A DNA stretch of 64,000 bases from Podarcis gaigeae. Its lineage: Eukaryota. The stretch lies in the NCBI GenBank assembly GCA_964106915.2, contig OZ066916.1; one strand, written 5' to 3'. The position numbers and the translations under genes are program-made. The notes under the pieces were generated by a model, which made no database searches, was not told the origin of the DNA, and saw only the letters and a program-made list of their open reading frames with translations. Positions within the stretch are counted from its first letter, which is position 1; every line of letters starts with the position of its first letter. Positions 3,810-59,630 of the stretch are shown here, one piece after another.

Positions 3810-3850
3810 GTCCAGCAAGACTATGAATCTCTGTTCCAAATGCTTTGCTG
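3810..3850 (+). CDS. ZFAND3: ZFAND3 coding exon 2 (41 nt): (G)SSKTMNLCSKCFA(D), second half of the N-terminal A20-like zinc finger
   Basis: Polypyrimidine tract and CAG acceptor (AG 3808-3809), GTAAGT donor at 3851. Translation matches recalled vertebrate ZFAND3 GSSKTMNLCSKCFAD. Ends in phase 1 and joins in frame to the exon at 46663. Confidence 0.96.

Positions 3851-3883: not shown

Positions 3884-3923
<40 letters not shown>
3884..3923. repeat. (CT)n microsatellite
   Basis: Perfect dinucleotide run about 33 nt downstream of the exon 2 donor. Confidence 0.98.
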
Positions 3924-5414: not shown

Positions 5415-5490
5415 ATATTAGTATATTAATATTATTAGGAACTATATTAGTAGGACTATATTAGTATATTAGGAACTATATTAGTAGGAA
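5415..5490. repeat. Short imperfect tandem repeat (TAGGAACTATATTAG units)
   Basis: About three copies visible directly. Confidence 0.8.
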
Positions 5491-5865
5491 CACTTTTGTA
5501 GATAAGTCTATAGTTGAATTTGGTTGTGTTGATTTTTAGAATGTTGAAGTATTTCAGAGGCATGCACAAGATATCAGCTATTTCTCAAAGAAAGAAAATA
5601 TTTCAAAGAACCATGACAGATAAAATATTAGGGTCATTGTTTTGTTTAAAATAGGCAGGAGCAGCAGAGACCATAGATTTCCATGAAATCTAACCACACT
5701 TTTTATCTCTGCAGGAGATAGGCAACTTGGAGTATGCAAAGAGTAACATCCTATAAAACCCCATCACCCAATATTGAATAAGGCCATAAGCCTTAACAAT
5801 TTCGCCTTGGAACTAAAGCAAATTTTATGAAATGCACGTAATATTTATTACTATTTATTAAAATA

Positions 5866-5999: not shown

Positions 6000-6709
6000 A
6001 ATATATATCCCATCCTTCTTCCCAAAGAAGTCCAGGGTGGGTGTAGCCCACAGATGCTTATGCTACAATAAATTTGCCTACCTTTTAAAGCCCTAAGGTT
6101 TTCCTTTTTCGGCAAAACCAGATTCAGACAGACACCATTTTACATGTTGTCCATGCTTACATGTAGCAATGTTATGAACCTTTACTTAATAAACTCTGCT
6201 AGTGTAGACAGCTGGATCACTTCCTATTTGCTCCTTCTTTCAGGCTAGTGAATAAACAAGCCACAAAAGGGTCAGCTTAGTGCTGTGTCCAAACCCAGGA
6301 TTGTGGTCTTTTTTTTTACACTTATCAGAGAGTTAAGCGTAAACGTTTAGTGCAAATATAATGTGGCTGCCTAAATGCCAATTGTGTTCCATCATCATAT
6401 TGTGTAAGAAGTCCTATGATAGTATTATGACTGCCATTTGCCTATGAGACTTGAAAACAAGTTAACGTAGCACCCTGGGATTTTAGCCAGGCCACTTAAA
6501 TAAGAAAAATGTTCAACTTTAATACAATGTAGAAGGTTAAAGGAATGATGGGCTTTACTTCTCATATACTGAAACGCTCTAAAGTGGGTATCTTTATAGT
6601 GCAATTTTTTCATGTTTACATTTAATTAGAATATTGCAAACTGAATGTATAAAAGAAAACCTGAGAGTTCTTGATTTTCACTTCATTTTCTTTCTCTCTT
6701 TTTTTTTAG

Positions 6710-6736
6710 AAAAAAGAAATCCACACAATGAAACAG
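6710..6736 (+). CDS. Candidate alternative 27-nt in-frame microexon of ZFAND3, adding EKRNPHNET
   Basis: About 35-nt pyrimidine-rich tract ending TTTTTTTAG, then 27 nt, then CAG|GTTAGT donor. Phase 1-1 with no stop in the ZFAND3 frame. No transcript evidence available. Confidence 0.45.
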
Positions 6737-7132
6737 GTTAGTAAACCAACAAAATTAACTGAACTCCTGTAAAACAATTGTGCTATCCATGTCCATTGCA
6801 CAGCCCAACACCCTTTGCTCCAGATCATAGAAATAAGAATGGAAATATGTAAATGATTAGGTCAAATGAGTTACACAAAAAGTGGTTGTTTTAATTCTTC
6901 ATACTAATTTTTCCATATTTCACATTTATTGTGATCTCATACATCCTATGGGGCTAGGGAATATGCCTGACTTCCTGATGGTTTGCTGTACAGCACTCAC
7001 AGGAAAATCTTTTAAGACTGGAGTAGGTAGGAAAAAGGAGAACTCAGGAAACTGGTTTCAGATTTTTGAAATAGCAAGTAATAAGCGACAAGATCAAATG
7101 CTGCTTGGCAACCCCATTTCACTTGCTGTAAA

Positions 7133-7540
7133 CAGTAGAATCATAGAATCATAGAGTTGGAAGAGACCACAAGGACCATCGAGTCCAACCCCCTGCCAAG
7201 CAGGAAACACCATCAGAGCACTCCTGACATATGGTTGTCAAGCCTCTGCTTAAAGACCTCCAAAGAAGGAGACTCCACCACTCTCCTTGGCAGCAAATTC
7301 CACTGTCGAACAGCTCTTACTGTCAGGAAGTTCTTCCTAATGTTCTTCCGCTTCTCTGGAGCAGCAGAAAACAACCTTTCTCCCTCCTCTATGTGACATC
7401 CTTTTATATATTTGAACATGGCTATCATATCACCCCTTAACCTCCTCTTCTCCAGGCTAAACATGCCCAGCTCCTTTAGCCGTTCCTCATAAGGCATCGT
7501 TTCCAGGCCTTTGACCATTTTGGTTGCCCTCTTCTGGACA
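7133..7540 (-). mobile_element. 5'-truncated CR1 LINE 3' end (ORF2 C-terminus and 3' UTR) with an internal deletion
   Basis: ORF 7213-7518 reads [25 protein letters not shown]...[34 protein letters not shown], typical of CR1. (ATTCTATG)n terminal repeat on the minus strand. Confidence 0.95.
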
Positions 7541-20430: not shown

Positions 20431-22310
20431 TCTGTATAGTCTGCTAGATTGATTGCTCATTGTGTCGTGCTGAAGTAGAAAATCTGTATAAAGTTGTGGG
20501 TTTGTTTTTTATTTTTATTTTGATCTTATTGCCTTATCAACCGACACATATTTTACAAGACGAATCTCCTTGCAGTTCAGTTTGCTAAAGCAAAACATGG
20601 TATCTGCACAAGGAGAGGTGTGTAGAATTGAGGATTGAATGTTTCATCTCTACATGGCTGTGGTTTATGCTGCCACCTATCTGGCTTATTGTTTCCTCCT
20701 GGATACATTATTTCCCCACTAAGCAGCTTTTCATATCCTTGCTTTTAGATCTTGCTTCCAGAAGTGAGTGATGTTTGCAGAGCTGTCTGTTTGCGGTACA
20801 CTGCAGCATGCATTAAGCAGAAATCTCTGTTATTTGGAGTTGAAGTTTTCATCTTAAAGCCTTGATGGAGATCCCTGTCTCATGTTATCAATGTTGAGAA
20901 TTCTTCACAAATCTGAAGAATTCAGCAACCTTGTCTCTTTTAATTCTGCATGTCCCAGCCCTGTTGGGGTATTATGATGGCATATATGGGAACTGCCTGT
21001 AAAAACAGATGGATATTAATTTATTAAATAGCTTCCTTTTTTGTATTTACTCTTAAGAAGGAGGGAATAAGCAACATTTTTATTCTTAAGTTTGTAAATA
21101 TCCTGTAACCTCACCTCTCTTCTGCCTTCCCATATTTATCTGTGGGAAATGTGATCTGCATTTTTAAAGTACCAGCCTGCTATTTATGCTGTGTGTTATT
21201 TAAATTGATTGGGTCTTTTCTTTTAACTCTTGTAATGGGGTTTCAGAACTGTTTTGTTTCCTGGTCTAAGCCTTTTAAATTTGTTCACCCTTGAAGAGCA
21301 CTGAGCTATGTGCCGAATAAATAGTTTGTGTCTCTGCTTATTACCTTTTCTGAGAAAAGAAAACAAGTTTTAAAGCCACAGCTGACAGTGCTGGTTGGAT
21401 CTACATGATTTTTATTTTTTTTAATGATGGAGGGATGAAAAATGGAAATGGGAACTAAATTCAGTGAATAGTCAGAAGGTGACTAAAACACGATTTAAAT
21501 TTTAGTGATGTTGCCAGGTTCTGTCACTCCACTTATTCTGCTCAGAAATATATTATCAGATCAGTGTTTGGAAGAGAACTCTCATCTAGTTTGGCTGTTT
21601 TTAATTACGGTAAAGAAATTGGAGTGTAATGTGATATTGGGTGTTCCTTCCTCCCTTTACCAATTATATCTGACCCAGGTTAGCCACACTAAGTGCAGAT
21701 ATAATAGTGCTAAAAACCTAGCTGATTCCTAAAAGGAAGTGGTAGAGTAGATGGATTGGGGTAGGGAGTTTTGAGGTATGTGTTCCTGAGATATCAGCCC
21801 TACTTAATAATGGCCATATAGTGTTGTGTCTGTAGTGGTCCTCCTAAAGCATATATTTACTTCCTTTCCATTTTATTGTGTAGTGGAAAAGATTGAGGTG
21901 ACCAAATGGAGCCCCCCAGTATTTTGTACCCCCATTAATCCCTTCTGGATTTCACTGAAAACTCACTTAAGTAACAAGCCAGGGCAGGCACACAACCCTG
22001 TAGCAGTAGTAATTTTCTAGGTAGGAGGAAATCTTATAAGCCGCTTGATGGCAGAATCAATTCTATACGAAAATCCAGCATTCACCGGGAAACAATTAAA
22101 AAGCAAATGGTTGGAGTGGCCTGGAAAATAGAAAATATAGATATATTTTTCTGAGGTGGGTGGATGTTCCCCAGATGAATATACACTGTGTCTGATTGGA
22201 AGGGCTGGTAGGAAGGATGTCTACTGCTAGATACCCACTACTCTTGTCAGGGGAGCTGACTTGGGCCCCAAGTTATGGGTGCTCAGTGCATGTGACATCA
22301 TGACAAGATG

Positions 22311-33738: not shown

Positions 33739-34664
33739 ATGCAGAGCTTCAAAATAAAAGCATTCAGGAAAAGTATACAGTAATAATTTTCTGTCATCTC
33801 TTTGTGGAAGAAATTCTGGTAGAAGAAATAAATACATACCTCTGTCTTCCTTCCAGCTTTATGTGAAGAAGAAAGATGGGAATTAAATGATCTGAGACGG
33901 TTTCAATTTATTTCCATTTGTTTATTGCCCACACTTCTCCAGGGCTTTACATTCTAAGATTTCTTATATTATCACTTTATAGTTAGGTACCTGGATGCTT
34001 TTCCATATTGGCTGAAAGGTAAGGTGAGATGTGTATCAAAGCATGACCTCTAATTCCGAAGGTTCTCAAATTGAGCTACACTGAGATGCTCTGCAGAAAG
34101 GTTGCAGTACAATTGATAATATCTGCTGGGCTTTGCATTTGATTTATTTTTTCTGTTTGAAAAATATTTGAGTTTGTTTGTTTGTTTTTTGTATCCACCC
34201 CCCCCAAAAAAAAAAACTAGATTGTGTAATAGGCTAGCAACACCCTGGTTTCAGGCCTGCGGCTTTCACCGTATGTAGCTGGTGCAGTTTGCTGATTTTT
34301 CCCTAAAAAGTTTCTTATGGAGGGGCCTTTCTCAACAGCTTAGCCTAGGGTCTGTGACTTTTATACCATGGTGCTGTTTCATCAGCGAAGTTTATGGAAT
34401 ATTTCTCTCTTTCCTTATATTTAAACCCCTCATTGGGATTGAAAATATTCAGTTCAATTCAATTTGCCATATAAATTTAAATGTTGTAAATAAAAATGAA
34501 TAAATAAAACTACAGAAGTGCGCCCAGCTCGTTAGAAAGCTAACACTGCAGCTACTAGAATGAGTTATGTACGTACATAGATTTGTGGAACCAAAACTAA
34601 TGCATGGGGGGAGAGTTTTGAGAATAGCCACTTACCCATGATTACTTAACGTTTGCCTTTCAGG

Positions 34665-46662: not shown

Positions 46663-46842
46663 ATTTTCAAAAGAAGCAACCAGATGATGAGTCCACTCCC
46701 AGCACAAGCAACAGCCAATCAGATTTGTTCTCTGGAGAAACAAATAGTGACAACAGTAATACCTCCCTATCTCCGCAGACTGTTAACTCCAACCAGCAAC
46801 TTTCGACAGAACTGAATGTAACTTCACCGAGTAAAGAAAAAT
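46663..46842 (+). CDS. ZFAND3: ZFAND3 coding exon 3 (180 nt): (D)FQKKQPDDESTPSTSNSQSDLFSGETNSDNSNTSLSPQTVNSNQQLSTELNVTSPSKEK(C), Ser/Thr-rich linker
   Basis: TTGTTAG acceptor, T|GTAAGT donor. Peptide closely resembles recalled ZFAND3 DFQKKQPDDDSAPSTSNSQSDLFSEE...TELNVTSPSKEEC. Phase 1-1. Confidence 0.97.
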
Positions 46843-59564: not shown

Positions 59565-59630
59565 GTGGGCCATGCACAGATACAGCTCATGTCTCCTTAA
59601 CCACAGCAACCAAAAGATCCTGCGATTCAG
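59565..59630 (+). CDS. ZFAND3: ZFAND3 coding exon 4 (66 nt): (C)GPCTDTAHVSLTTATKRSCDS
   Basis: Branch-point-like CTGAC at 59542-59546, pyrimidine tract, TTTCAG acceptor, CAG|GTAAAT donor. Matches recalled ZFAND3 CGPCTDTAHVSLITPTKRSC. In frame with exon 3. Confidence 0.96.

Follow-up and report, generated by a model that had tools for sequence, protein, structure and literature searches.

The stretch of Podarcis gaigeae DNA analyzed here, 64 kb long and called the window below, covers part of the ZFAND3 gene on the + strand. The exons of the gene and the features around a very short exon between exons 2 and 3 were located as follows.

3810..3850, + strand: ZFAND3 exon 2, 41 nt, encoding the second half of the A20-like finger, with a phase-1 donor (sequence; tblastn with the lacertid ZFAND3 protein P0121)
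6670..6709, + strand: branch-point region and polypyrimidine tract of the 27-nt exon (sequence)
6710..6736, + strand: 27-nt sauropsid-specific microexon, phase 1-1, encoding (E)KRNPHNET (sequence; peptide matches in sauropsid records)
6737..6742, + strand: donor GTTAGT of the 27-nt exon (sequence)
46663..46842, + strand: ZFAND3 exon 3, 180 nt, encoding the end of the finger helix and the Ser/Thr-rich linker (58/59 identical to P0121)
59565..59630, + strand: ZFAND3 exon 4, 66 nt (tblastn match of 21/21 residues; boundaries read from the sequence)

The intron between exons 2 and 3 is 42.8 kb long, and the 27-nt exon splits it into introns of 2.9 kb upstream and 39.9 kb downstream. A (TC)20 microsatellite occupies 3884-3923, 33 nt past the donor of exon 2, and a 34-nt AT-rich sequence is tandemly duplicated at 5422-5491. 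At about 7135-7200 (+), some 400 nt beyond the microexon, begins a stretch that may resemble the end of a common squamate retroelement.

A preliminary description of this DNA had proposed an exon of exactly 27 nt, placed at 6710-6736 between a long pyrimidine tract and a CAG/GTTAGT donor, and the sequence bears this out. The tract is terminated by the acceptor AG at 6708-6709; it consists of pyrimidines at 16/16 positions from -5 to -20, 12 of them T, and is still pyrimidine rich as far as -40 (16/20). The region from -44 to the acceptor is free of AG and contains branch-like A nucleotides at -36, -30, and -25, while the donor agrees with the consensus at 8/9 positions. Exon 2, the 27-nt exon, and exon 3 are in phase 1 throughout, and reading the spliced frame gave the phase 1-1, stop-free CSKCFA-EKRNPHNET-DFQKK that had been claimed.

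We scanned the intron for microexons with the pattern YAG-(3-51 nt)-GT, requiring at least 80% pyrimidines and a donor score of at least 4 bits, the scores being based on an approximate donor frequency table. The strict scan of the 42.8 kb returned a single match, the 27-nt exon, and none on the reverse strand. Looser cut-offs gave five matches on the sense strand, one of them in frame, versus one on the reverse strand and none in frame. The 27-nt segment is the best microexon candidate in the intron.

We also looked for the source of the segment. The surroundings had been called repeat free, and indeed no tandem repeat overlaps the site; a genome search with positions 6600-6800, which skips common words, retrieved, apart from the region itself, a single hit of 43 nt, which lies in the pyrimidine tract. 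With no tandem repeat at the site and no dispersed copy in this search, an origin from a repeat was rejected. Derivation from the beginning of exon 3 by duplication, suggested by the likeness of KRNPHNE to KKQPDDE, was likewise unsupported, as shuffled sequences often scored equally. When compared with the entire protein, shuffled insert peptides did equally well in 297-1494 of 3000 trials; when compared only with the opening 14 residues of exon 3, a range picked post hoc, they did so in 15-213 of 3000. DNA-level shuffles matched the likeness between the insert and exon 3 in 302 of 1000.

To place the exon among vertebrates, we pooled the results of three homologue searches with those of three look-ups of protein clusters. 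The 417 proteins listed were sorted into clades manually according to their source names, and their junctions were scored. Some of these records are isoforms from a single species or models transferred from one species to another, so the counts are not independent. The matches listed include 186 named sauropsid records, 67 of which lack exon 2 and were left unscored. Among the 119 scorable ones listed, 109 contain the insert EKRNPHNE(K/T), namely 31 squamate, 1 tuatara, 18 turtle, and 59 bird records; 9 skip the insert and 1 has another junction. The insert was present in 0/169 named mammal, amphibian, and lungfish records among the matches listed, with no teleost among those scored; these comprise 147 records with a direct junction, 3 with another junction, and 19 without exon 2. 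It was also absent from 61 records without a source name and one PDB fragment, the 15 scorable ones being mammal-like or placed in mammal clusters. The ZFAND3 protein cited in the preliminary description, which lacks the peptide, agrees in this respect with the mammalian form. As judged from these protein sequences, squamates, tuatara, turtles, and birds share the exon, whose single origin likely dates to the sauropsid ancestor.

The carriers include the Anolis protein (NP_001280054.1 / DAA34972.1), and the peptide of the window, EKRNPHNET, is identical in the lacertid records P0121, P0170, P0127, and P0129. The ninth position of the insert is T rather than K in this lizard, as in other lacertids and Gekko japonicus. 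In comparison with the sauropsid 236-aa RefSeq proteins (Anolis NP_001280054.1; Lacerta/Podarcis P0121), the window shares the junction peptide, and it differs from P0121 at one residue of exon 3 and at none of the microexon. For several species, the 236-aa form is the sole model among the matches listed. Two of the insert-bearing records, P0135 and P0148, also give Logan as a source, which would imply spliced transcript contigs; 0/9 sauropsid skip records do so.

The exon had been thought to be missed by annotation, but the RefSeq and GenBank models of birds, turtles, and squamates contain it, and an extra avian and reptilian exon has been published. That extra exon reportedly adds residues at the A20-like finger. 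Our alignment of ZFAND3 proteins contains no sauropsid-wide insertion other than the 9-residue insert, and the published exon is therefore very likely the 27-nt exon. The available text of a review (PMC8061069) credits Otake, Endo, and Park (2011, Gene 488:23; PMID 21914466) with the additional exon of the ZFAND3 (TEX27) genes of birds and reptiles and gives neither its size nor its position. The 27-nt exon is already known, being annotated and published; since it has been in print from 2011 on and is in RefSeq, finding it here changes little. Its interest lies elsewhere: the gain of an exon is plainly visible in a protein with an N terminus that hardly varies between lungfish and mammals, and comparing the natural 227- and 236-residue forms would be a simple way to ask what the ZFAND3 finger binds.

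The nine skip models among the matches listed consist of seven from birds (204-205 aa), one Ensembl-type model from Varanus, and one from crocodilians. All seven bird models also lack exon 4, and the three that we compared match the 205-aa mouse isoform in exon layout, so the bird skip models may have been projected from mammalian proteins. In several bird models, exon 1 is joined straight to exon 3. The only crocodilian record listed, P0200 (Crocodylus porosus / Gavialis gangeticus isoform X2), skips the insert, and its length of 199 aa equals that of the mammalian X2 form, versus the 208 aa usual in birds. A secondary loss or real skipping of the exon is possible in this lineage. As the gene models are not independent of one another and the counts cover up to 15 members per cluster, skip forms of 227 aa could be hidden.

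The insert had been placed just after the last zinc ligand of the finger, and the domain match agrees with this position. The Pfam zf-A20 domain (PF01754) matches residues 19-36 with its four cysteines and stays intact when the insert is present, the score hardly changing (27.9 versus 28.1 bits). The insert starts at residue 38, three residues past the last zinc-binding cysteine and outside the Pfam match, leaving the four zinc ligands and the FWG motif unchanged and replacing the following run DFQKKQ with EKRNPH. In the alignment to ZFAND5, the insert coincides with the run after CxxC; phmmer gave an E-value of 0.054 to the isolated ZFAND5 domain and of 1e-10 to full-length ZFAND5. For the protein with and without the insert, AlphaFold2 gave models of mean pLDDT 42.5 and 42.6, respectively, in which even the AN1 finger was misfolded and the helix spanned 33-39 and 33-41; as the models were too poor, we kept the helix end out of the evidence.

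The homologous N-terminal finger of ZFAND5/ZNF216 (PDB 2KZY, 2L00) binds ubiquitin around Thr55/Asp58 according to the accessible text of PMC11799193; the available portions of the cited literature contain no report of ubiquitin binding by the ZFAND3 finger. The tuning of ubiquitin or partner binding that the preliminary description had proposed for the insert is hypothetical. In human glioblastoma cells, the double substitution C32A+C35A left ZFAND3 activity in place, whereas deletion of the domain abolished it, as given in the accessible part of PMC7732990.

The observations as a whole are best explained by a sauropsid exon of single origin that is mostly included in most tissues, and we consider this explanation likely. 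A 27-nt in-frame exon would have been gained once in ZFAND3 by the sauropsid ancestor. At this length, the exon is too short for exon definition, so strong splice signals likely do the recruiting: the T-rich, U2AF-type tract at the acceptor, the AG-free zone, and the near-consensus donor would attract the core spliceosome with no need for an SRRM3/4 UGC element. The nine residues would enter after the last cysteine, where their proline likely ends the C-terminal helix of the finger earlier and lengthens the linker. The near-invariant peptide would likely act not as a tissue switch but as a fixed cap or contact surface next to the finger, specific to this lineage. The gene models suggest that the exon is probably included in most transcripts.

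The preliminary description had instead presented the exon as a candidate for tissue regulation, which our analysis left unsupported: the acceptor is T rich and UGC free, and only nine of the sauropsid models listed skip the exon. Its caveat that no UGC lies beside the acceptor holds, as no TGC occurs within 70 nt and the nearest is at -75; likewise, none of the RBFOX- and QKI-type words TGCATG, GCATG, and ACTAAY was found within 150 nt on either side of the exon. A cassette regulated in neural, muscle, or germ-line tissue and switching the A20-like finger between two forms would nevertheless fit the symmetric phase and the 27-nt size, the nine skip models, and the extended pyrimidine tract combined with a long downstream intron. 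An extended pyrimidine-rich tract has been reported for neural microexons (PMC12871342, accessible text), and the available text of a preprint (bioRxiv 10.1101/2024.09.17.613571) places UGC in 74-79% of SRRM3/4 targets and does not make it a strict requirement for the SRRM4 response, leaving about a quarter of SRRM3/4-dependent microexons without the motif. In the terms of these two sources, the exon shares with the SRRM3/4 class a length of 3-27 nt, preservation of the frame, a strong donor, and a long pyrimidine tract, but it has no UGC between the branch point and the AG and is present in most models listed. Inclusion in 109/119 of the scorable models listed, often as the sole listed isoform, and the bird skip models that lack exon 4 in 7/7 cases and so may be mammalian projections speak against a regulated cassette, and we regard it as unlikely. 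Searches of four RNA-like contig sets with the 5' part of exon 3 returned nothing in three and an unrelated 35-nt piece in the fourth, with no sequence spanning either junction, and these results speak neither for nor against inclusion. The constitutive micro-exons of Li et al. (2015, PMC4317164), as characterized in the accessible text, are at most 51 nt long and have strong splice sites and a T-rich tract 5-20 nt upstream, all of which the 27-nt exon shares. Their flanking introns tend to be short in the same text, whereas the 27-nt exon is lineage restricted and is followed by an intron of 39.9 kb. The exon likely works like this constitutive class, in which we do not file it as a member, its inclusion level being estimated from gene-model counts.

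The main rival to a fixed cap or contact surface accepts the exon as real and takes its peptide for a nearly neutral spacer, with the conservation driven by splicing signals in a very short exon. The insert lies outside the Pfam finger match, mammals and possibly crocodilians manage without it, and short exons are described as rich in splicing enhancers in the accessible text of PMC4317164, all of which is consistent with a spacer. However, the insert is better conserved than the neighboring linker in protein sequences across birds, turtles, and squamates: among 47 distinct rows, 7/9 of its columns are invariant and the mean majority is 0.991, compared with 0.947, 0.955, and 0.884 in the adjoining segments of exon 3. 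We give the spacer a minority chance. A chance splice-like sequence in a long intron, with no exon at all, would agree with the fact that no direct reads were seen; yet the segment is the unique best candidate in the intron, its peptide is identical in lacertid RefSeq models and near identical in more than 100 other sauropsid records, and these protein records already refute such a coincidence. A mostly included sauropsid exon of single origin remains our preferred reading.

The intron contains a second short exon, downstream of the first.

20749..20763, + strand: second in-frame 15-nt microexon, phase 1-1, D-LASR-N, donor GTGAGT (sequence; identical peptide in P0019 and P0124)
20740..20742, + strand: TGC at -9 of the 15-nt exon acceptor, a putative SRRM3/4-type motif (sequence)

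This exon keeps the frame with or without the 27-nt exon. Its peptide, DLASRN, follows the nine residues in the RefSeq X1 models of the gecko Eublepharis (P0019) and the cordylid Hemicordylus (P0124) and is absent from the X2 models of both; it is thus seen in 2/31 insert-bearing squamate records listed and in no bird or turtle record listed. Such a pattern is expected 1.6e-4 times in the intron, the reverse strand has none, and the region is single copy in the genome search. We hold the 15-nt exon to be very probably real. Around it are a TGC at -9, a branch-like CTAAG at -27, a GCATG at +43, and a TGCATG at +184. In the intron at large, such a TGC is found at 22% of 1461 YAG sites, TGCATG in 11% of cases per 200 nt, and two GCATG in 4%, and given these background rates, the motifs are suggestive only. 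The 15-nt exon, apparently confined to squamates, is a better candidate for regulated splicing than the 27-nt exon and nearer to the SRRM3/4 class, and it resembles the kind of regulated microexon that the preliminary description had envisaged.

The two exons could form a two-step cassette at the end of the A20-like finger in squamates, with an old, mostly included 27-nt exon and a younger, optional 15-nt exon that has SRRM3/4- and RBFOX-type motifs and is switched on in neurons; we put this forward as a tentative possibility, its uncertain part being the neural regulation. If true, a neural microexon restricted to lizards would have been added to one restricted to sauropsids. The 15-nt neighbor is in itself a small addition, annotated in two species, and our search, outside of which lay most subscription journals and several supplements, found no published description of it.

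When the in-frame scan of the intron was relaxed, the sense strand yielded three candidates and the antisense strand none. The third, at 33983-34018 (+), is a single-copy segment of 36 nt that is bounded by AG and GT, stays in frame without a stop, and has a strong donor; its peptide has no match in the 417 proteins, and it is probably a pseudo-exon. At the same ZFAND3 junction, the viper models P0169 and P0174 (Crotalus, Vipera) contain another optional insert, the 10-residue AATGDLALHT. We found no convincing counterpart of it in the window; AATGDLALHT and the peptide of the 15-nt exon have DLA in common.
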